A model generated the notes under the pieces. That model saw only the letters and a list, made by a program, of their open reading frames with translations. It was not told the DNA's origin and did not search any database. The translations under genes and the position numbers were made by a program. 64,000 nt of DNA from the NCBI RefSeq assembly GCF_004010195.1, contig NC_057757.1:4522807-4586806 (forward strand), read 5' to 3'. The stretch comes from Chiloscyllium plagiosum. Its lineage: Eukaryota. This document shows positions 3,105 to 64,000 of the stretch, piece after piece. Each line of letters starts with the position of its first letter. Position 1 is the stretch's first letter.

Positions 3105-3941
3105 TCCAAGATTTGCAAAGAAAGCTAGCTCCCTCCACACACCAATAAAATGAACCTTCTCATCCATCAATAAATATGCTATCTTTAACCTTCCTTTGGG
3201 AAGAGCTTACATTTGCAATTGAACACGTCTTTCTCTGTCTGCAATATTCTTCTCCATTGTTCAGATCTGTCTATATTCTGCAGAGCTTTCTCTTCCCCTT
3301 CCCCACTTCCAGTTATAACCTTCACCTTCATATAATCAGGAAACATGGAAAAGCTATACACATTGCACACCTCAAATATTAACACAGTTTGTCAGCAGCT
3401 GCTAGAACTGCAGTGTGCCATGAAGTACAGGTCACCAAATCAAAAATGTCTAGTTAATTCTTAATTTCTGTTCATTCATCAATTCTCAGTCCACAGCAAT
3501 TTTATTAATAATACACCTCAAGTCATATTTTTACAACATAAACATAGCTGAGGCTTTACCTTGTTTTTGATGCTTGAATAGACAGTCATCAACTAACCAT
3601 CGTATCCATTGTGCAATCTACATTCTCAGAATCTCTCAGATTTCACAATATCATGTTGCTTTCATTAACCTGTGCTCATTCTGCCTAATTCTGTTGTGAG
3701 TTTCAAAGTATCCCTTTAAAAGGAGCCTAATATTAAATCTGTAATAATGGATTCCATCTTTTTGTGTACTACCAATGTTAGTTCAACTGGTTATATTTTC
3801 CTACTTGCATTCTCCCACCTTTCTTCAAAGTTAGCCATAGCTCAGACCTTCCATTTCTTTGGAACTGTTCTGGAATGTAAGTACTTGCTGTGGCTGCATT
3901 GTTAATTTGCTATTCAGCATCTCCTTATTCCTCTTTTACAG

Positions 3942-4846
3942 CCAACTTGGTGACAATTGCCATCCTCGGCCAGGGAAAGTGTGGTCTCTCTAAGTGTGTC
4001 ACTCGGTATCTGATGGCCATGGCAGTGGCTGATCTATTGGTCATCCTCAATTACATAATCCTGACACGAATTAAGGCCTTTTATTTTCCAACTAACTTTC
4101 TGTTCATTACTCCAGTGTGCTCCATCCAATCTGCTCTAAATCATGCTTCTACAGATATTTCGGTCTGGCTAACAGTTGGTTTTACTCTTGATCGTTTTGT
4201 CGCCATTTGTTGCCAGAAGTTGAAGACTAAATATTGCAGTGAAAGAACAGCAACTGCCATCATAGGATTGATCTGTCCCTTCTTCTGTTTAAAGAACATA
4301 CCTTGGTACTTTGCTTATGAATCCATAATTAGAAAGGACAATGTACCATGGGGTTGCAATAGAAAACGAGATTATTATACTGTAAATGCTTGGATAGCAT
4401 ATAATTGGATTCACCGATGCTCTGCACCGCTGCTGCCAATATTTCTGATACTGCTGCTTAATGCCCTGACAGTCAGTCACATTTTAGCATCCAGTAAGGC
4501 CCGTCAGAGATTACGGACCAACCGGGATCTTCAGAATCAAAATGATCCCGAGATGGAGAACCGGAGAAGGTCTGTCATCTTACTCTTTGCCATATCTGGA
4601 AACTTCATCCTGCTGTGGGTTTCCTATGTCATCTACTTCTTACTGATCCGTGTCACACACCATTATTATTCACGTGGTTTCCATGACCCCATGTACATCC
4701 TTGATCAAACCAGTCACATGCTCCTCCTTTTGAGCTGCTGCACAAACACATGTATTTATGCGGTGACCCAGAGGAAATTTAGAGAACAGCTCATCAACGG
4801 GGTGAGATATCCACTGAAAGCAATGTCTCAACTCATACGAAAATGA
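3942..4846 (+). CDS. Class A GPCR, GPR139/GPR142-like; main coding exon (end of TM1 to stop); first exon not found in window
   Basis: Acceptor ctcttttacag at 3931-3941, phase 1 ((A)NLVTIAIL). Open to TGA 4846. Motifs MAVADLL (TM2), TLDRF (DRY-like), DPEMENRRRSVILLFAISGNFILLW (ICL3/TM6), SCCTNTCIY (TM7). Confidence 0.88.
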
Positions 4847-26475: not shown

Positions 26476-26898
26476 TTAACGTACCCAGAAGTGAAATCAT
26501 TTATTACTGAGAACACCTTTGTTAAAGGAAATACAAATTGCAACACTTATAAAACAAATTTTAAATAATTGAGGTTGCAGAAGTATCAGATGCTCACAAA
26601 TAGTACCTTTTTGTCAGTAAGGCATTTCTATAACTTTATCAAAATGTGTTTAATGCATGTATTAATTAGGGTCTGAAGTATTAGGAGTGTACAGCCATCA
26701 CATGCTGGTTGTTTAGATACACTCTCCACTCTATCGAAATAAATACTGGTGAATTGCTAAATGAGTTACCTTGTGCTTAGGAGTTAGAATATTTCTTAAC
26801 AAGAGAGAAGGTGGTGGAAACTTTAGAGCAGTGGGCATATCCTATAGACAGTTGTTAAAACTGAACCAGAAACAAGATGTTGATTTGCTATTATTTAC

Positions 26899-27493
26899 CA
26901 TCATCTTCATCCTCCATCATAGTTTCCTCCTCAAAATACTCGAGCTGTTCCAATTTTGTGGCTCGCTGTTTGAACCAGAGTGACCGAGGTGGTTTGTCAG
27001 GCTTCTTCTTGTTCTGTTTGCTGCTAGCTGTGACCTGAGACTCAAAGTCTTCAGTTACTGGGACAACAGTCTTTTTCCTCTTTGAGGGAGCCAGCTGAAT
27101 GGCTAGATTCGCGGTACCTTTGTCCATTCTATACTTGCTTAGCCCCATCTCCAAATCTTTCACATTCAGCCTTTCCAGCTGTTCACTTGCGACGCTAGTG
27201 GACTTCTTTTCTGCGTCCTGGTGTTTCTTGGATTTTAAATGGTTATCATAGGCATTGAATGTGACAAATCTTTTACCGCAAGAAGTGCAGTCTGTAGCAG
27301 TCCCCTTTCTCTTCTCTTCGACAGCTGATCTCAGGGCCAATACACGTTCTTGGAAGTTTTCAACTGTCACCGGAGGCATGTCTGCGACTTTACGCTTCAG
27401 GTTATATCTGAGCCAATCTGTTTTGTAGTGAGACCTCTGAATCTCAGCATCGCCAAAAGCCACATGACACGTGATGCAGGTGTAGGAAGACAT
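26899..27493 (-). pseudogene. ZNF622: ZNF622 first coding exon
   Basis: MSSYTCITCHVAF...HYKTDWLRYNLKRKVADMPPV...CTSCGKRF...NHLKSKKH; acceptor ttttgttttaag 2 nt before ATG implies an upstream non-coding exon; donor G|gtaaat. Confidence 0.93.
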
Positions 27494-27704
27494 TGCTTAA
27501 AACAAAAATAACATTTAGAACACAGAAAACGAAATCAGGCCCACAAAGAACAAGCATTATCACCACTTTCCATTACAAATCAAATCCAGAGTGCATGCAC
27601 AATTATCCTTGATATCAACAAGATCTGCTTCACCTCTTGGCTGTATTTATAGCTGCCTAGATCCCACACTCGAATTGTCTACTAAATCTCACTGGCTGTC
27701 TTCT

Positions 27705-51477: not shown

Positions 51478-52785
51478 ACGGTACAGATATCTCCCTGAGA
51501 GAGATGGGACTGAGAAACACCATTCAGTTTACATATATCTCCCTGAGAGAGAGGGGATTGCAAGACACCAGTCAGTGTACATATATCTCCCTGAGAGAGA
51601 GGGGATTGCAAGACACCAGTCAGTGTACAGATATCTCCCTGAGAGTCAGAGAGAGAGATAGGGAGAGAGGGGACTGAGAGACATCAGTCAGTATACTGAT
51701 ATCTTCTTGAGAGAGAGAGTGAGATGGAACAGAGAGACACCATTCAGTGTACAGATATCTCCCTGAGAGAGAGGGGTGACTGAGAGACAACAGTCAGTGT
51801 GCAGATATCTCCCTGAGAGAGAGATAGAGAGGGGACTGAGAGACATCAGTCACTGTACTGATCTCTCCCTGACAGAGAGCGAGATGGGACAGAGAGTCAC
51901 CAGTCAGTGTACAGATATCTCCCACAGAGAAAGACAAAGAGAGAGAGAGACCAGTCAGTGTACAGATATCTCCCTGAGAGAGAGTCAGAGAGAGGTAGAG
52001 AGAGAAGAGGCTGAGAGACATTAGTCAGTGTACTGATATCTCCCTGAGAGAGAGACAGAGAGAGAGAGACAGTGGTCTAAGAGACACCAGTCAGTCTACA
52101 GATATCTGTGTGTGTGTGTGAGAGAGAGAGGGGACTGAGAGACACCAGTCAGTCTACAGATATCTCCCTGACAGAGAGAGAGAGCGAGATGGGACAGAGA
52201 GTCACCAGTCAGTGTACAGATATCTCCCACAGAGAAAGACAGAGAGAGAGACCAGTCAGTGTACAGATATCTCCCTGAGAGAGAATCAGAGAGAGAGAGG
52301 TAGAGAAAAAAGAGGTTGAGAGACATTAGTCAGTGTACTGATATCTCCCTGAGAAAGAGAGACAGAGACAGAGAGACAGAGACAGCGAGAGAGACCAGTC
52401 AGTCTACAGATATCTCTCTGTGAGAGAGAGAGGGGCGGGGGGACTGAGAGACACCAGTCAGTCTACAGATATCTCCCTGAGAAAGAGAGAGAGAGAGAGA
52501 GAGGGGGGACTAAGGGGCATCAGTCAGTGAACTGATATCTCTATGAAAGAGAGAGAAAGAGAGGACTGAAAGATAACAGTCAGTATACAGATGCTTCCCT
52601 GAGAGAGAGAGAGGAGAGAGGCAGAGAGAGAGAGCGAGAGAGAGAGAGAGAGCAGTCAGCATACAGATATCTCCCTGTGAGAGAGGGGAAGTGAGAGAAA
52701 CCAGTCAGTGTACAGATATCACCCTGAGAGAGAGGAGACTGAGATACACCAATCAGTGTACAGATATTTCACTGGGAAAGAGAGG
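51478..52785. repeat. Minisatellite: core GAGACACCAGTCAGTGTACAGATATCTCCCTGAGA with variable (GA)n linkers
   Basis: More than 20 copies, period about 40-70 bp. Confidence 0.95.
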
Positions 52786-52886
52786 GGTTTATGTGTTTTC
52801 AGTAGCTCCCTGGATTGTGAAGGATGGACAGCTTGTGTTTTGGCTGGGAAAATTTTCCCAGGATCCTCTGCTCTGTGGCCATTGCC

Positions 52887-53070
52887 TTATCTCTTGGCTG
52901 ACATTTCATCACCTGTTGATTGATCCCTGGCCAATCTGCCAAAGAGGCTGATTCATGGGTGGGGCAGAGTGTTATCTGCTCTGATAGGAGCCAGGTGTTG
53001 CTTGGCTGGGTGTCAGGAGGCTGGTCTGAAAGTGTATATAAACCCAGGGTGCACTATGTACAAATCACCT
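52887..53070 (+). promoter_or_regulatory. Candidate RNA polymerase II core and proximal promoter
   Basis: TATATAAA 53035-53042, CCAAT 52931-52935, GGGTGGGG 52957-52964, GATA sites TTATCT 52887 and 52972 and TGATAG 52982, E-boxes 52910 and 52992; ATG 81 bp after the TATA box. Confidence 0.65.
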
Positions 53071-53122
53071 CAGCTAGAGGCAAGCAGACAACTTACTGTG
53101 AGACTCCCGACTCACCACAACC

Positions 53123-53177
53123 ATGAAGTACCTGTGTCTGTTCCTCCTGGTCAGCCTGATGGCAGTGGTCATGGCAT
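53123..53177 (+). CDS. Exon 1 of unidentified secreted protein: signal peptide MKYLCLFLLVSLMAVVMA
   Basis: Kozak-like ACAACCATGA; basic n-region, hydrophobic core, V-x-A cleavage motif; followed by T|GTATGT donor (phase 1). Confidence 0.75.
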
Positions 53178-53249
53178 GTATGTAGCAGTGTGCTGTCCCA
53201 CTCACCCCTGGTAGTGGTCAGCTTTTTAATGTCAGTCCTGCTCTCGCGA

Positions 53250-53592
53250 CCTCTAGACGGAGCTCCGAGTGTCCAGTGTAGACCATGGACAGAGCTCGCA
53301 GTCTCTGGATGGAACTCCGAGTGTCCAGTGTAGACCATGGACAGAGCTCGCAGACTCTGGACGGAGCTCCGAATGTCCAGTGTAGACCATGGACAGAGCT
53401 CATAGCCTCTGGACAGAGCTCCGAGTGTCCAGTGTAGACCATGGACAGAGCTCACAGTCTCTGGACGGAGCTCCGGGTGTCCAGTGTAGACCATGGACAG
53501 AGGTCTGAGTGTCCAGTGTAGACCATGGACAGAGCTCACTGTCTCTGGACAGAGCTCGGAATGTCCAGTGTAGACCACAGATAGAGCTCACA
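53250..53592. repeat. 52-bp minisatellite in intron 1 of the candidate gene
   Basis: GTCCAGTGTAGACCA recurs at 53271, 53323, 53375, 53427, 53479, 53511 (short unit), 53563. Confidence 0.95.
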
Positions 53593-53659
53593 GTAATTGG
53601 AGAGTATTCCCACTCAGTCCTGACTTGTGCCTCATTGATAGTGTACAGGCTTTGGGGAG

Positions 53660-53992
53660 TATGGCAAAGTCTTTTCCTTGGGGTGGTGGAGTCCAGAACT
53701 AGAGGACATAAGTTTAGGGTGAGAGAGGGGAAAGATATAAAAGAGACCTAAGGGGCAACCTTTTCTCACAGAGGGTGATATGTGTATGGAATGAGCTGCC
53801 AGAGGAAGTGGTGGAGACTGGTACAATTGCAACATTTAAAAGGCATTTGGATGGGTATATGAATAGGAAGGGTTTGGATGGATATGGGCTGGGTGCTGGC
53901 AGGTGGGACTAGATTGGGTTGGGATTTCTGGTCGGCATGGACGGGTTGGACTGAAGAGTCTGTTTGCATGCTGTACATCTCTATGACTCTGA
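53660..53992 (+). mobile_element. CR1/HER1-type LINE 3' fragment
   Basis: Family 3' sequence and ATGACTCT tail. Confidence 0.85.
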
Positions 53993-54267
53993 GTCAGGAG
54001 GTGAGTTACTCGCTGTAGGATTCCCAACCTCTGACCTGCTCTTGTAGCCACCGTTTTTATGCGATGAGCCCAGTTGAGTTTCTGGTCAATGGCAATTCTT
54101 GGAATGTTGATGAAAGAAATTATATATTCCTTCTTTGCAGATTGCTAATGACAGAGACTGTGTAATGAAAATGGTGTTAAACCTGACATGAACTGTTTGA
54201 GTTGAAAATATAGATTTCAAATGCATTCTCCACAAATAAACTTGATATAACTTCATTTATTCCACAG

Positions 54268-54288
54268 TTGGTCAACCCTACAGGAAAG
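54268..54288 (+). CDS. Candidate micro-exon 2 (21 nt): (F)GQPYRK
   Basis: catttattccacag|TTGGTCAACCCTACAGGAAAG|gtattg; phase 1-1. Confidence 0.6.
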
Positions 54289-54869
54289 GTATTGCATTTC
54301 ATTCTCACTGTCTGTCTCCTAATGAAGATTAGCAATGAGGACTGAAAGTTAAAGAATGTTAGTGCCAGTGTTTCCCTGCCATAGTGGATTGGCCATACTA
54401 AATTACCCCATAGTGTCCAGGGATGTGCAGGTTAGGCTGGATTGGCCGTGCTCAATTGCCCCATAGCTTTCAGGGATGTGTAGGTTAGGTGTATTAGTCA
54501 GGGGTAAATGTAGAGTAATGCGGAATGGGTGGGTTATTCTTCGGAGGGTCGGTGTGGACTTGTTGGGCTGAATGGCCTGTTTTCACACTGTAGGGATTCT
54601 ATGATGTATTAATTGGGGGGAGGGAGAGTTAATTCTCTCTCGGTTACAGAATTGGCTACACTTCTCTAACAGTCCCCTCCCAGGTCTGCACATATAAGAA
54701 AACTATCCTTCCCAAACCTTGGTCTAGACAAATTGCCACTCCTTCAGTTGAACCCCTGCACTGGAAATCTCAAAACTGGCCTTTTGTGATGAGATACCAG
54801 GAGTGTGTCGTCCACACAGTGGGAGGAAGAAAACACTAATGTTTCCTACATGCACATTTAATGACCAGG

Positions 54870-55080
54870 TTAAAAACCACACGACACCGGGTTATAGTCC
54901 AACAGGTTTACTTGGAAGCACTAGCTTTCGGAGTGCTACTCCTTTATCAGGTAGCTAGTGGAACAGGATCATAAGACACAGAATTTATGGCAAAAGATCA
55001 AAGTGTCCTACAGCTGACGTGATGTATTGAACAAACCGAGATTGCTGTTAAGTCTTTCAGCTTTTAGAATGGGTTGCACA
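54870..55080 (-). mobile_element. Penelope pLTR of the 10150-11170 family
   Basis: ACACCGGGTTATAGTCCAACAGGTTT..GCACTAGCTTTCGGAG; degenerate hammerhead core CTGATAA on -. Confidence 0.7.
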
Positions 55081-55389
55081 AGGTATAATCTAATGGTTGA
55101 AAGATTAATGCCAACTCATTCTGAACATATGGAACTGATTGGGCTGCACATGCAGATTTCCGATTCACCTTCTGTCGGTAATACTCAGGAACACAAGCCT
55201 GTTTCATTTCCTGGGACTCCCAGTGTATTATGTATCAGGAATTGTCTTTAATTTCCTAAATCTGGTTCTCGACAGTGCACAACGGCTGTGTCTCTGAACA
55301 ACACCAAATGTTGCGTGACACCAAATACTCACCGCTGCACTGTCCCCGTGCTCATTGATATCCAGATCCTCATAATAATGTGTGAATTG

Positions 55390-55815
55390 TGTGGCATGGT
55401 GGCTCAGTGGTTAGCACTGCTGCCTCACAGTGCCAGGGACCCTGGTTCGATTCCAGCCTTGGGTGACTGTCTGTGTGGAGTTTGCACATTCTCACTGTGT
55501 CTACGTGGGTTTCCTCCCACAGTCCAGATTTGTGCAGGTTAGGGTGGATTGGCTGCGCTAAATTGTCCCACAGTGTTCAGGGATGGTGCAGGTTAGGGTG
55601 GATTGGCTGTGCTGAATTTGTCCCATAGTTTTCAGGGATGGTGCAGGTTAGGGTGGATTGGACTGTGCTAAATTGTCCCATAGTGCCCAGGGATGTGCAG
55701 GTTAGGGTGCATTAGTCAGGGGTAAATGTAGGGTAGGGGAATGGGTTACTCTTCGGAGGGTCAGAGTGGACTTGTTGGGCCGAAGGGCCTGTTTCCACAC
55801 TGTAAGGATGCTAAT
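55390..55815 (+). mobile_element. HE1 SINE with internal tandem expansion
   Basis: Head TGGCTCAGTGGTTAGCACTGCTGCC, B-box GGTTCGATTCC, repeated GTGCAGGTTAGGGTG units. Confidence 0.85.
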
Positions 55816-57759
55816 TCTAATTTTGTAAGAAAGTGAATGTTTGGGACGCGAGCATGGCAGACTGGCTAGCATTTGATTGTTGCGAATGTTTCCACCATAC
55901 GTGTTGCACCGATGTGTTGGGCTCCTTGAGGATGGGGATATTTCGTAGAATCGTTGGATTGTACAGCACAGAAGGAGGCCATTTGGCCCATGGTGAATGT
56001 GCCAGATCCCGAAAGAGTGTTCCAGTTAGTCCCACACTCCAGCCCTACCTCGGTAGCCCTCTAACTCCCATCATTTTCAAATGTGTGGAGCCTCCTCCTC
56101 CTCCAGTGAGTTGTTTAATTGTCCACCACCATTCGCGACTGGACGTGGCAGGACTGCAGAGCTTTGATCGCTAAGCTCTGCCAATCACTTGCTGTTTGGT
56201 GGCTTAACCAGGTTGGCATCTCATTTTCAGGTGTGCCTGGTGCTGTTCCTGGCATGCCCTCTCGCACTCTCCGTTGAAGCAAGGTTAATCCCCTGGCTTG
56301 ATGGTAAAGGTCGAGTGGGCGATAATGCTGGGCCATGATTGTACAATTCTGCTGCTGACAATAGCCCACAGCGTCTCATGGATGCCCAGACTTGAGTTGC
56401 AAGATCTGTTCACAGCTGAGCCCTTTCCGATCCGATTTTGATAACGGTGCGTCAGCCGAAGTTGTGTTTCAATTACCCTCACTGTGGAAAGCTCCTGACA
56501 TTTTCTACTCTTTGCAGTTAACAATAAAACCATTAGGTGGCGTTGGTGTGCTTTCATTCCTGGATGGTGACGTTCCACCTTCAGATCCCAGTGCTCTGCC
56601 TTTACATTGAGACTATCCCACTTAGTGTGCCCTAACAATGTGTGTGCATATGTCAGGCCATAGTGTAGGAGCAGAAGCAGACCATTCGGTCCATCAGGCA
56701 AGTTCTGTCGACCCAATGGCTAGTCTGAATACCCTGGACTCCACTTTCCTGCCCTCTTCCCTCAACTCCCTCACCATTTAAAAATCTGGGCACGACCTCA
56801 ATTACAATGGGTGTTGCGTGTTTGTGAATTGTTCCAGTTCATGACAGGAGTTGCCAGTCTTCTCCCAGGATCTGGAATGGGTTCGGAACATTGTTCCCTC
56901 AGCTGGCACTTCAACACTGTCATGTCTGGAGCAGATACTGTCCTTCCCCTTGAGGCCTACATCCTATGAGTGAATAAGTGAGGAAATTGAATGCGATAAC
57001 TCTGTTCCAGTGAGGTGTGCCAAATGCGTTTGTTTACCTGCTGTATATGTCCAAGCGGAGGAATAATTTTTATCACCTAATTCACGGTTTATTCTGAGCC
57101 ACTCCAAGTCTGTCCTTGCCTGAGCTCTGACTGTTGACCAGACCATGTTGTTAGAATCCCTACTGTGTGGAAACAGGCTATTCGGCCCAACTGACCCTCC
57201 AAAGAGTATCCCACCCAGACCCATTCCCCTACCCTATTATTCTACATTTACCCCTGACTAATGCACCTAACCCACACATCCCTGGACACTAAGGGATAGA
57301 GTTCAAAAGTGCACAGAGCCTAACATTGGGTGGCTGCTGAAGCTGGGTGTGTGGGTTGGATAGCTCAGTTGCCTGAATATCTGGCTTGCAGTACAGGGTG
57401 TTACGTATGACGCACAGGTTCGATTCCCACACTCCAGTTAGCGTTACCAAGAAAGGAACAGTTTCTCAAACTCAGCTCTGCTGAGGCATGGTTAAAACTC
57501 AGCAGCAGCCAGCTCTCTCTCTCAAAGAAGAGAGCAAGCCCTCTTTCCCCAGTAAGCGTTTACCTTCACTTGTGAAAGTGCACCACTGACCTATAATTCT
57601 GAATCTGTTAATTGTTGCAGTGACTGGGATATCTGGGCGGGTTGGACCGAAGGGTCTGTTTCCGTGCTGTACGTCTCTATGACTATGATGGACTACAACT
57701 CATTCTCTGCAGACAATGTACATTAACACACATCTGTTTTTTTCTTTCTCTTTTCACAG

Positions 57760-57777
57760 TTCCTCCTCCCTATTATG
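57760..57777 (+). CDS. Candidate micro-exon (18 nt): (V)PPPYY
   Basis: Long pyrimidine tract ttttttctttctcttttcacag|TTCCTCCTCCCTATTATG|gtatcg; branch-like cattaac 57721-57727; phase 1-1. Confidence 0.65.
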
Positions 57778-58984
57778 GTATCGTATTTCCTTTTATTTTA
57801 CATTTCATTCTCAAAACAAATGAAGTTTGAAAGGGCTGGAGGCCTGAAAATTGTTGATTATAAGGGTGAATCACTTCACAGCACATTGGCTTCCTTTATT
57901 CCAGGGGGTGATTTCCCTGATGTGGGCCATTGGGATCACGGAAAACCCTGGATATGCCCGCCCACAAAACGGGCAAGACCTTTGCCTAAGATTGTGCAAC
58001 GAATAGATTGGGTTGGGATATCTGGTCGGCATGGACGGGTTGGACCGAAGGGTCTGTACATCTCTATGACTCTATAACTGGGGGTACAGGTGATGACTCA
58101 GGGGCTAGAATGGTTCGGTGGCTCTTTCTGACTGGTGATGGGCCAAGTGGCCTGATCTCTCCGCTCTGCAGACATTGCAAAATATCTGTGGAATGCTTGG
58201 GTGTAGCATCACGGTCCAATGCAATTCAAGACTTTGGGAGCCACTCAGCAGATGACCTAGTGGCTGAAGTAGGGTCATTCAGCCCCTTGAAGCCGCTCCA
58301 TCTTTCAATACCATCGCGGCTTTCATCAGGTTACTCCGCATTCCTGCTCACACCAGTCATTTATCAAGAATCCAGCCACGTCTGTCCTCAAACTCATACT
58401 GCATCATTGAGTTTGTCCTGTCGAAAGTGCCTGATTACCTGCATTTGTCCCACTTTCCTGCACTCTGCCTTTAGTGTTGAATAATCAATGGTTCAACTTT
58501 GACCACCTTTTAAAGAAAAGACTCATCACTCTCTTAGAAAATATTTCTTCATATTTCGATCTCAAATGGGACGACCTGTGATTTGACTCCTGGTATAAGA
58601 TCCTCTCCAAGTCCACCCTGTTGGGAGCTCTCTCAGCCCTGTTCTGTCTTAATTCAGCCTATTTAACCAATCCACGTGCCATCATCACTGCCTGCATTTT
58701 TAGTTTAAATTACTAGTCTTGGACCCGTTCTTTCCTCCGTAAAATTTGGCCAATGTATCTCCAGTCCTGAGTTGTAATCATTAACCAGATCACCACTATA
58801 AATTGATCACCTCAATGGCCACACATTTCCACTTTATCAAAAGCTGAATGATCTCATCAAAAAAATAAGGTATTTCAATCAGTGGGTGTGAAAAATAGTT
58901 CAATTTTTAAAGATTTAGGCCAAATGTGATAAATGAGAAAATTAATATCACACTCCACGCTTTGGTGGAAGAGGGTTAGATTGT

Positions 58985-59560
58985 CAGAGAGCCATAGAAT
59001 CATCCAGCACAGAAACAGACCCTTCGGCCCAACCAGCCCGTGCTGACCATAATCCCAAACTAAGCCAGTTCCAGCTGCCTGCTCCTGGCCCATATGCCTC
59101 CAAACCTTTCCTACTCATGGACTTATCCAAACACCTTTTAAACGTTGTAACTGCACCCTCATCCACCACTTCCTCAGGAGTGCCATTTCACACACGAACC
59201 ACCCTCTGTGTAAATAGGTCGCTCCCCGTGTCTTTTTAAAATCTTTTCTCCTCCCACCTTAAAATTATGCCCCCGAGTCTTGAAATCCACCCCCCCCCCC
59301 TAGGGAAAAGAGACTTGTCATTCACCTTATCTATAATCCCTCATGATTTTGTAAACTTGTATAAGGGTCACCCCTCAGCCTCCTACACTCCAGTCTCTCT
59401 TTGGGACGCAAACCCTCCATTCCTGGCAAAATCCTGGCAAATCTCTTCTGTTCCAGCATCCACACATCCTCAGGAAGTTCATTCCATACGAGAGCCACTC
59501 TCTGTGTTAAAAAAAAATTGCCCCTCGTGCCTTTTTTAAATCTCTCTCCATTCACTTTAA
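58985..59560 (-). mobile_element. CR1-type LINE 3' fragments (rearranged)
   Basis: WNELPEDV, TTFKRCLDK, family tail. Confidence 0.8.
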
Positions 59561-59624
59561 AACGAACAAGGATTGATTAATAAAAGAGGGCAAAGAGTGA
59601 TGCTCGCTCAATGATTAGAAGTAT

Positions 59625-59940
59625 GGGTGGCACAGTGGTTAGCACTGCTGCCTCACAGCGCCAGAGACCCGGGTTCAATTCAGGCCTCAGGCGACTGACT
59701 GTGTGGAGTTTGCACATTCTCCCTGTGTCTGCGTGGGTTTCGTCCGGGTGCTCCGGTTTCCTCCCACAGTCCAAAAATGTGCAGGTTAGGTGAATTGACC
59801 ATGCTAAATTGCCCGTAGTGTTAGGGGCAGGGGTGAATGTAGGGGAATGGGTCTGGGTGGGTTGCGCTTCAGCGGGTCGGTGTGGACCTGCTGGGCTGAA
59901 GGGCGTGTTTCCAAACTGTAAGTAATCTAATCTAATCTAA
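59625..59940 (+). mobile_element. HE1 SINE, full length
   Basis: Near-identical to 16608-16908, (AATCT)n tail. Confidence 0.9.
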
Positions 59941-60052
59941 AAGAAAACGACTCAGAAAGTGCCAATGATGATAAAGAAATTGTAAGTTCCCAATTCATTC
60001 TATGCAGACACTGCTCATTCTTAAACCTTGTTCTTCATTTCTTTTCCCACAG

Positions 60053-60070
60053 GCTCCATTCCCATCTATG
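60053..60070 (+). CDS. Candidate micro-exon (18 nt): (G)SIPIY
   Basis: ttcttcatttcttttcccacag|GCTCCATTCCCATCTATG|gtaagt; consensus donor; phase 1-1. Confidence 0.7.
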
Positions 60071-60593
60071 GTAAGTTATTTAATTTTCTGCATTTACTTC
60101 ACCAGAATGAATAACCATCATGCCTGAGCCAAGAGGACTGTTGAATATGGTGCACCATCATCCCAATCATTGGCATCACGCTCACTATTACAACGGGGTG
60201 ATAGGGTGATGTGTTTCACCTTGGACACAGTGGCCTGCGAATGGACTATTTTTTTTGGGGGGGGGGGCGTTCTCCGCCCAAAAAAAAGCAAAACCATCTG
60301 TTTCCTCAGATCAAGCTGTTGAATTAGACACTTATCTGCCTTGAAGGGAAGTGGATTTCTCTGTGACTGTATGACTCTAAACCCTGGTCTGTGCGAGCTG
60401 GCCACACTCAGACAGGGTGCTTCTATTGTTCTAACTTTAAAAAGACCCCAAGGCCTGACAAGCTCTAGAGCTTCTGGTAGACTGTCCAGCGTGTCTGCCT
60501 TACAACCTCACTTCAAAAACAAACCGGGACAAAACAATCTTTTCAAGTCACGACATTGTTCCATAACTGTAATATTGTCCCACAAGTAATAAC

Positions 60594-62330
60594 TGTTATG
60601 GACCAGATTAGACCCCCTCAAAATATTTTAGGAAGGTAGCCTAGACCCTACCTTTTTGTATTTTTAAAGATAAGTGTAAAGGGCCTGTGTTCCAGATGCA
60701 ATTCAAACCACTCGACGTGAAGCAAAACATGTTATATTCAAGCACTATAGTTAAATTGCAACAAATGAAAGAGGATGGACGTTGCCAGGGTTGGAGGGTT
60801 TGAGCTATAGGGAGAGGCTGAACAGGTTGAGGCTGTTTTCCCTGGAGTGTCAGAGGCTGAGGGGTGACCTTATAGAGGTTTATAAAATCATGAGGCGCAT
60901 GGATAGGATAAATAGACAAAGTCTTTTCCCTGGGGTGGGGGAGTCCAGAACTAGAGTTTAAGGTGAGAGGGGAGAAATTTAAGTGGGACTTAAGGGGCAG
61001 CTTTTTCACACAGAAGGTGGTGCGTGTATGGAATGAGTTGCCAGAGGATGTGGTGGAGGCTGGTACAATTACAGTATTTAAAAGGCATGTGGATGAGTAT
61101 ATGAATAGGAAGGGTTTAGAGGGATATGGGCCAAGTGCTGGCAAATGGGATGAGATTAGGTTAGGGTATCTGGTCGGCATGGATGAGTTGGACTGAAGGG
61201 TCTGCTTCCGTGCTGTACAGCTGTATGACTCTATAACTTTGAATAACTTAACTCTATTTGAACACTTAGCAGAATAATAGACACAGTAACTATTACTGAC
61301 TAACTGTTCCAATGTAGTAACACCCCATAAACACATCCCTGGGCAAAAAAACAAATTCCAAAAAGCTGATTTCTCTCCTAGTTAACCCACAGCAGTGAGA
61401 AACCCCACTTTCCTACTGTAACTGAGAGAAGGGGGAGATAGCTTCTACTTCTTCAAGACCACAACAGCAACTTCTTAAAGCCAAACCTAAAAACTAAGGC
61501 AAAACTATTGGTCAAAGCATTGAGTACAGGAGTTGGGAGGTCATGTTGTGGCTGTACAGGACATTCGTGAGGCCACTGTTGGAATATTGCGTGCAATTCT
61601 GGTTTCCCTGCTATAGGAAGGATATTGCGAAACTTGAAAGGGTACAGAAAAGATTGACAAGGATGTTGCCAGGGTTGGAGGATTTGAGATACGAGGAGAG
61701 GCTGAATAGGCTGGGGCTGTTTTCCCTGGAGCATCGGAGGCTGAGGGGTGACCTTATAGGGGTTTATAAAATCACGAGGCGCATGGATAGGATAAATAAA
61801 CAAGGTCCTTTCCCTGGGGTGGGGGGAGTCCAGAACTAGAGGGCATAGGTTTAAGGTGAGAGGGGAAAATTTTAAAAGGACTTAAGGGGCAACTTTTGCA
61901 CTCAGAGGGTGGTGCGTGTATGGAATAAGCTGCCAGAGGAAATGGTAGAAGTTGGTACAATTACAACATTTAAAAGGCATCTGGATGGGTATATGAATAG
62001 GAAGGGTTTGGAGGGATATGGGCCAAGTGCTGGCAAATGGGACTAGATTAGGTTGGGATATCTGGTCAGCATGGACGAGTTGGATCAAAGGGTCTGTTTC
62101 CATGCTGTACATCTTTATGACTCTATGACTCTAAACCCTGGTCTGTGAGACCAGGCCACACCCAGCCAGGCTGCTTCTATTATTACAACTTTTTAAAAAA
62201 ATCCAAGGCCTGACAAGCTGATTACTCCAGTGTTTCTGGTAGACTGTCCGGTACCTCTGCCTTACAACCTCTCTTCAAAAACAAACCAGGACAAAATAAT
62301 CTCTTCAAGTCACAGCATTGTTCCATAACC
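60594..62330. mobile_element. Solo-LTR-like element interrupted by two CR1 3' fragments (60775-61234, 61510-62132, + strand)
   Basis: Ends TGTTATGG / CCATAAC; CR1 motifs in ORFs 60963-61196 and 61543-61839. Confidence 0.55.
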
Positions 62331-63784: not shown

Positions 63785-64000
63785 GAGTAAAGTTCCCTCT
63801 ACACTATCCCCATCAAACACTCCCAGGGACAGGGACAGCACAGGGTTAGATACAGAGTAAAGCTCCCTCTACACTATCCCCATCAAACACTCCCACGAGA
63901 GGGACAGCACAGGGTTAGATACAGAGTAAAGCTCCCTCTACACTATCCCCATCAAACACTCCCAGGAAAAGGGACAGCACAGGGTTAGATACAGAGTAAA
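63785..64000. repeat. 69-70-bp tandem repeat running off the window end
   Basis: ACAGAGTAAAGCTCCCTCTACACTATCCCCATCAAACACTCCC..GGGACAGCACAGGGTTAGAT; ACAGAGTAAA at 63852, 63921, 63991. Confidence 0.95.

Follow-up and report, generated by a model that had tools for sequence, protein, structure and literature searches.

The genome of the shark Chiloscyllium plagiosum contains an unannotated family of at least eight related loci, one of which lies in the 64,000-nucleotide (nt) stretch analysed here, referred to as the window (G000:C48:4522807-4586806, within a 3.56-Gb assembly). We consider it probable that this locus is a working gene, with three micro-exons following a signal-peptide exon, and that it belongs to a multigene family recorded to date in this shark genome only, a reading based on sequence comparison. 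According to the layout that we propose for the family, a conserved GATA/CCAAT/TATA promoter would be followed by an exon that encodes only a signal peptide and ends in phase 1, and then by a run of 6-24-nt cassettes, each comprising 2+3n+1 bases, nearly always ending in G and equipped with its own conserved branch site, pyrimidine tract, CAG acceptor and GTAA-type donor. The cassettes would have multiplied through tandem duplication of exon-plus-intron units. Since the signal exon ends in phase 1 and the cassettes are self-contained 1-1 units, cassettes could be duplicated, lost and presumably also skipped without breaking the frame. The window gene would be a short Pro/Tyr-type member of this family, with its exons spliced as listed below.

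A signal-peptide exon followed by three predicted micro-exons

The first-pass annotation of this DNA had placed a TATA/CCAAT promoter, an ATG and an 18-residue signal-peptide exon with a GTATGT donor ahead of three segments of 21, 18 and 18 nt at 54268, 57760 and 60053, and had ascribed splice signals and a common phase to these segments. The promoter and the signal-peptide exon as well as the three segments with their signals and phase were confirmed in the sequence, and the locus comprises the following features:

52843..53042, + strand: family-conserved promoter block, aligned over at least 200 nt in all eight exon-1 loci
52886-52892, + strand: GATA-like CTTATCT in the promoter block
52931-52935, + strand: CCAAT in the promoter block
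53035-53042, + strand: TATA box TATATAAA in the promoter block
53068..53177, + strand: exon 1, putative start about 25-30 nt past the TATA box, coding sequence (CDS) 53123-53177
53251..53589, + strand: 52-nt minisatellite in intron 1, period 52, 4.8 copies, 92% matches
54268-54288, + strand: predicted micro-exon 2, 21 nt, between ttccacag and gtattg, phase 1-1, reads F-GQPYRK
55224-55238, + strand: decayed cassette TGTATTATGTATCAG, would read (V)YYVS, family-type flanks on both sides
57697..57777, + strand: upstream flank and micro-exon 3, with branch site ttaac, pyrimidine tract and cacag, conserved
57760-57777, + strand: predicted micro-exon 3, 18 nt, between tttcacag and gtatcg, reads V-PPPYY
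59989..60098, + strand: micro-exon 4 with family-type flanks on both sides, as matched by the flank profiles
60053-60070, + strand: predicted micro-exon 4, 18 nt, between cccacag and gtaagt, reads G-SIPIY plus G

The start ATG at 53123 lies in the context ACAACCATGA, with an in-frame TGA upstream at 53099-53101. The CDS of exon 1 encodes the 18 residues MKYLCLFLLVSLMAVVMA plus one base, the T at 53177, so that the exon ends in phase 1, and the donor GTATGT starts at 53178. The peptide MKYLCLFLLVSLMAVVMA exhibits a basic n-region and a 12-residue hydrophobic core (mean Kyte-Doolittle hydropathy of 2.98 for residues 4-17), and V at position -3 and A at position -1 (V-x-A) stand ahead of the predicted cleavage point. 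Cleavage after Ala18 would give a peptide starting FGQPYRKVPPPYYGSIPIYG (FGQPYRK-VPPPYY-GSIPIY-G), which is predicted to be secreted. Directly upstream of the conserved promoter, window 52422-52782 is occupied by (GA)n and 49-66-nt tandem repeats (GA-rich plus CAGTCAGTGTACAGATATC).

Each of the micro-exons 2-4 is preceded by a pyrimidine tract running to CACAG, ends in G, is followed by a GTA donor and is open in phase 1; the introns between exons 1-4 measure 1090, 3471 and 2275 nt. In a chance scan of 94 kb on both strands, with criteria that were set only after the exons had been seen (an AG acceptor, an exon length of 12-30 nt divisible by 3, a terminal G, a GTA donor and an open phase 1), just two candidates had at least 83% pyrimidines upstream, and these were window exons 3 and 4. 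Lowering the pyrimidine content to at least 72% resulted in 12 candidates, five of which are located inside the 6.9-kb gene interval, as compared to 0.27 expected from the other 181 kb. Two of these five, at 55068 and 56280, lack a family-type flank, and their peptides are off-type without Tyr-rich content; they are probably chance occurrences.

Flank homology supports the predicted micro-exons

We built an upstream-flank profile from 19 paralogue flanks, containing no window sequence, and ran it on the window plus 30 kb on both strands (188 kb). The best match, 57697-57742 (E=6.3e-7), is located directly 5' of window exon 3 and the second, 59989-60016 (E=0.071), 5' of window exon 4, with the third match, at 56507, being non-significant (E=0.74). 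At the decayed cassette the same profile aligned to 55159-55205 (E=9.6), and the two best matches of a downstream-flank profile were 55243-55266 (E=0.45), belonging to the decayed cassette, and 60071-60098 (E=1.5), belonging to exon 4. Flank homology supports the predicted window exons 3 and 4. Exon 2 is weakly backed by a comparison of cassettes, as local alignment of the putative exon 2 cassette to four other cassettes gave z values of 3.4-5.7, with the score being reached by 1-3 of 300 shuffles. The cassette at 55224-55238 carries GA in place of the GT donor, making it a dead micro-exon.

These results also bear on the possibility that there is no gene and that the elements are splice-like motifs in repeat-rich DNA or pieces of transposable elements. 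The region is indeed crowded with interspersed repeats, one of which, about 10 kb downstream, returned 8177 first-look candidates genome-wide; the cassettes, however, are low-copy, with one genome match for the exon-3 cassette and nine for an L005 cassette. In the examined loci the cassettes sit 3' of the signal-peptide exon and on its strand, lengths in multiples of 3 and the final G are kept, and with an independent profile the two highest-ranking matches in 188 kb fall on the flanks of window exons 3 and 4. A chance origin of the locus is already disfavoured, and we regard it as highly improbable.

The 5' module is shared by eight loci

A family query of 161 nt, reaching from the TATA box to the donor, was compared with the whole assembly. 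Promoter and exon 1 are present eight times in the genome with 83-100% identity, five times on C48 (2.88-4.58 Mb) and three times on short contigs. CTTATCT and the TATA box are found in 8/8 copies (the latter twice as TACATAAA), and CCAAT occupies the same site as in the window in four of them (window, L002, L004 and L008). The signal peptide is identical in five of the eight copies, and the phase-1 GT donor is retained in seven. In distant copies the CDS is best kept, with 53/55 identical positions in L005 versus 57/87 in the promoter, and 49/55 in L008 versus 30/62 at the intron start; not a single indel occurs in the 55-nt CDS among all eight copies. L006 (G000:C48:3040384-3043520, - strand) is a dead copy, with an in-frame TGA after MKHL and the donor GT gone.

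The intron-1 minisatellite also follows exon 1 in L002, L003 and L004 (85-95% match), with differing copy numbers, and the homology of the window gene to its nearest paralogues ceases just past it, suggesting that the 5' module, i.e. promoter, exon 1 and the start of intron 1, was seemingly copied or converted apart from the cassette arrays. The earlier reading of the locus is partly supported, with regard to its micro-exon architecture and predicted product type, and has to be widened by two elements unseen at that time: the gene is one of at least eight related loci, and it holds the dead cassette at 55224-55238.

Micro-exon arrays of the paralogues

At least four paralogues show, downstream of exon 1, arrays of phase 1-1 exons that measure 6-24 nt and whose peptides are rich in Gly, Tyr, His and Pro. 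The L002 gene has at least 15 micro-exons of 15-24 nt, encoding for example DPEPF, GHGGGY, GPGDYGGY, GKKGRGGY, GYKGYGGY, GYGGYGDY and GYGPGHG, six exons being of the GY(x)3HG type, and each exon is part of a tandemly repeated unit about 1.35 or 2.05 kb long. In the L008 gene (L019+L020 = G000:C48:4283400-4303399, +; minus strand of L025/L026) at least 11 micro-exons, measuring 21-24 nt, were identified, and VGPGYGP-type exons alternate with GKxYDxK-type exons. Further cassettes follow on the same genomic strand at a distance of 36-46 kb from exon 1 of L008, and the elastin-like alternation of hydrophobic and lysine-bearing cassettes in this gene takes in several dead copies, in which the AG or the GT is lost or, in one case, an internal stop occurs. 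The L005 gene carries five micro-exons of 12, 6, 12, 6 and 12 nt. Its 6-nt exons, ATTGGG and GTTATG, are family-flanked and located between the 12-nt ones (L022+L021 = G000:C48:2864700-2884699, -); they would rank with the shortest constitutive-looking exons, provided that they are spliced. Related cassettes are found on four other contigs (short unplaced or distant), on which exon 1 was not found, and several cassettes of the family have decayed by loss of AG or GT or by an internal stop.

The flanks align between paralogues despite wholly different exons and roughly follow the pattern attctctgcaga.aat..[ct]taaca.a.atctgttt-(Y)n-cacag, then the exon, then gtaa..t.tttaattt. A second profile, made from window and paralogue flanks, gave 58 matches at E<=0.01, for 43 of which an exon was called automatically, the remaining 15 being without an intact exon. 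The called exons were multiples of 3 in 41 of 43 cases (6, 9, 12, 15, 18, 21 or 24 nt; the other two measure 11 and 29 nt), which does not amount to 43 independent events since many cassettes are recent tandem copies. A final G is present in 43 of 44 distinct exons of a 45-exon curated set, and as the frame criterion was used in choosing this set and the training set of the profile, both counts overstate independence. With exons ending in G, the junction codons are mostly GGN or GTN, i.e. Gly or Val.

The exons of the youngest array, which has 7 units, share 80.7% identity, as compared to 95.7% for the 40 nt upstream and 97.5% for the 30 nt downstream, and nearly all exon differences change the residue. 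Taken with 60-nt flanks, this array has 9 variable columns out of 21 in the exon versus 25 out of 120 in the flanks, a marginal difference (Fisher p=0.049) that is suggestive only of exons changing faster than their flanks.

Predicted product

The conceptual products of all four genes contain 15-21% Tyr, the other main residues being Gly (50% in the L002 gene), Pro, His, Lys and Asp. The 19 mature residues of the window product comprise 26% P, 21% Y, 11% G and 11% I, with D/E outside the seven commonest residues; the window micro-exons encode no Cys, and the exon peptides are without SxE. The micro-exon architecture and the secreted, Pro/Tyr/Gly-rich predicted product put forward in the first-pass annotation fit a multigene family of the same design in the same genome. 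Judging by its composition, the product is probably a secreted matrix or coating peptide, which could act as a disordered extracellular component cross-linkable via Tyr or Lys. Three proteins that came up in an all-against-all HMMER comparison were discarded, as their matches are driven by repeats and they are unrelated to the family.

The 3' end and other readings of the locus

We searched for the 3' end of the window gene by several approaches. Flank profiles detected no additional cassette within 34 kb 3' of exon 4 nor in the next 40 kb (assembly gaps are present in this 74-kb stretch, beginning 2.8 kb beyond the window end with the one at 66819-67318 on the extended scale), and neither a stop-codon exon nor a poly(A) site was found in strict and relaxed exon scans of 30 kb downstream or in a stop-plus-poly(A) scan, all of which would miss a last exon without a family flank. 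A search for blocks unique to the paralogues recovered only the exon-1 region and no common last exon, and a last exon was found for no family member. Two candidates for a 3' end were rejected: an inverted repeat between two tail-to-tail paralogues proved to consist of interspersed repeats, and a block at 70.7 kb is the high-copy element mentioned above.

The negative results for cassettes, stop codon and poly(A) site in the window gene weigh against a working gene, as do the dependence among the cassette counts and the following observations. Only 19 mature residues are accounted for, and one cassette of the gene is dead. The last base of exon 1 is T in the window, compared to G in 6/7 paralogues, and the decayed L006 also has T. 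With the paralogue-only profile, the flank of exon 2 does not reach significance (E=20). Finally, with a naturally open 41-residue frame around exon 1 of L008 as seed, no scoring protein relatives of the signal-peptide region, either longer or of similar length, were obtained from two very large collections.

Several of these points would be expected if the family is real but the window copy is decaying or truncated, such that a duplicated 5' module stands before the few cassettes that survive, the gene lacking a functional 3' end and making no stable product. The homology to the nearest paralogues stopping past the intron-1 minisatellite, the small number of cassettes (three intact and one dead), the lack of any cassette or candidate last exon in the next 74 kb, the donor context (CAT followed by GTATGT in the window versus CAG followed by GTACGT in the four closest paralogues, L002-L005) and the existence of a clearly dead family member, L006, are all consistent with this explanation. 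On the other hand, the promoter motifs, the ATG, the frame and all eight splice-site dinucleotides of exons 1-4 are intact, and a last exon without a family flank would have escaped detection. Moreover, L005 is short as well, with its five exons of 6-12 nt, so that small size alone does not indicate decay. We therefore regard a decaying copy as possible but rather doubtful.

Another explanation is that exon 1 is real but has splice partners that differ from one or more of the three proposed exons, for instance because exon 2 is wrong, splicing being confined to those cassettes that possess a strong family flank, or because the true body is a downstream gene that has not been recognised. The non-significant flank of exon 2, the two further frame-compatible candidates in the interval (55068 and 56280) and the 3' end that the downstream scans did not find may be taken in its favour, but the two candidates have neither family flanks nor Tyr-rich content, and exon 2 shows repeated, if weak, alignment to other first-position cassettes. 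With regard to a known gene body downstream, 68 open reading frames (ORFs) of at least 110 aa in 70 kb contained no + strand Pfam domain except one weak ALKBH8_N, in a screen that is blind to small exons. Other splicing partners for exon 1 appear unlikely to us, and a working gene spliced as listed above is the explanation that we favour. The 70 kb downstream also harbour two reverse-transcriptase fragments, both on the minus strand.

Other features in and near the window

Downstream of exon 4 a segment of about 200 nt is present in two copies, at window 60360-60560 and 62120-62320, each adjoining a high-copy interspersed repeat; the pair represents a local duplication, about 1.76 kb in size. 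A tandem array with a 70-nt repeat unit, spanning about 1.4 kb, extends from window 63785-64000 into L009 to about 1230, and a similar array with 80-85% identity lies towards the distal end of the L002 paralogue region. Some 1.3 kb located about 50 kb beyond the window end (L035:1535-3119) are open in all three + and several minus frames, presumably owing to a simple or low-complexity repeat.

Two coding frames lie at a distance from the micro-exon locus within the window. At 3881-4846 on the + strand, about 48 kb upstream of the locus, a 321-residue intronless frame matches the rhodopsin family of seven-transmembrane receptors (PF00001, E 5e-19, 69 bits) and corresponds to a G protein-coupled receptor gene or retrocopy. 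A 201-residue frame at 26891-27496 on the - strand matches C2H2 / zf-C2H2_jaz (E 4e-8) and is probably an exon of a zinc-finger gene.

Discussion

Whole genes made of micro-exons are known from parasitic flatworms, and vertebrate micro-exons are known mainly as single alternative exons within ordinary genes. We found no description of a vertebrate family of such micro-exon genes in the open-access library searched. By analogy, the micro-exon genes (MEGs) of schistosomes are the closest counterpart in architecture, not in homology. PMC10526429 describes exons of 3-81 bp, introns of up to 5 kb and secreted products for these genes, a related bioRxiv abstract on MEGs states only 'symmetrically inserted long introns', and accelerated evolution of the MEG coding parts is reported in PMC4350168. 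The shark genes resemble schistosome MEGs in the predicted secretion of their products, in carrying their coding sequence in very short exons (21, 18 and 18 nt in the window, 6-24 nt in the paralogues) separated by long introns and, suggestively, in the lower identity of exons than of flanks in the youngest array. As in MEG-type architecture, a signal-peptide 5' exon is followed by exons that are multiples of 3, which holds for 41/43 called cassettes. Unlike in MEGs, the shark cassettes are all phase 1-1 and G-final and share one conserved splice-signal flank across genes, and their predicted products are Tyr/Gly/Pro/His low-complexity repeats. The hallmark of MEGs is differential splicing of the micro-exons, whereas the shark family is known here from genomic sequence alone. 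No sequence homology to flatworm MEG families emerged from the two collection-wide searches seeded with the signal-peptide region.

The second system to be compared is tropoelastin. Junction codons that are mostly Gly or Val are typical of elastin, the exons of which are far longer than 6-24 nt, and tropoelastin has a conserved C-terminal domain. PMC12554196 reports a signal-peptide first exon, phase 1:1 for every intron and the possibility of cassette-like skipping, and it treats the origin of tropoelastin at the base of the jawed vertebrates as unexplained. The shark genes share with tropoelastin the signal-peptide exon 1, the phase 1:1 of all introns and the replicated exon units. They differ from it in their 6-24-nt exons, in their Tyr-rich predicted products and in forming a multi-gene cluster instead of one or two genes. 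Poly-Ala/Lys cross-linking motifs of tropoelastin were not seen in the exons read, and the hydrophobic/Lys alternation of tropoelastin is absent in the window gene (FGQPYRK / VPPPYY / GSIPIY), with an analogous alternation only in L008. We rejected identity with tropoelastin, as the elastin design is shared but the content is not, with respect to exon size, Tyr-richness and cross-linking motifs.

Secreted low-complexity proteins of vertebrates also include the SCPP family. According to PMC9122587, most introns in the scpp genes of elasmobranchs and bony fishes are in phase 0, SCPP products are rich in D/E and carry SxE phosphorylation sites, the genes lie at the sparc-L locus, and a Tyr-rich region is described for elasmobranch Scpp. 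The window product is similar in its predicted secretion and low complexity, and the Tyr-rich region of elasmobranch Scpp is a further likeness. Eight SPARC-domain (SPARC_Ca_bdg) matches were found in the genome, on C14, C1, C38, C32, C41 and C10, and none on C48. Identity with SCPP was dismissed, as all junctions are phase 1, the exons read contain neither SxE sites nor an acidic domain, and C48 has no SPARC-domain match. The statement of the first-pass annotation that the gene does not fit the SCPP pattern is borne out by the contrast with the mostly phase-0 scpp introns reported in PMC9122587 and by 0/8 SPARC-domain matches on C48. For the egg capsule, which the first-pass annotation had suggested as a possible site of the protein along with skin, gland or tooth matrix, PMC10230700 names collagen as major component and provides no sequence data.

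A more far-reaching idea is that the family is expressed and represents a vertebrate counterpart of the MEGs, in which secreted Tyr-rich polymers would be assembled from variable combinations of cassettes, with the exons diversifying faster than their flanks, and which possibly shares its ancestry with tropoelastin. Shared ancestry is suggested as a possibility by the features in common with tropoelastin, namely the phase-1 signal exon, the 1:1 phase, the Gly/Val junctions and the alternation in one member. We regard this idea in its entirety as a long shot.

If transcribed and spliced as drawn here, the loci would constitute a clustered vertebrate family in which a signal-peptide exon precedes arrays of 6-24-nt cassettes. 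As two collections with billions of predicted proteins yielded nothing matching, such genes would be a blind spot of standard annotation. The family would then provide a natural example of the birth, copying and loss of exon-plus-splice-signal units and, in cartilaginous fishes, a candidate source of Tyr-rich secreted matrix material yet to be identified. It would also offer a comparison for how the phase 1:1 cassette design of elastin could have arisen.

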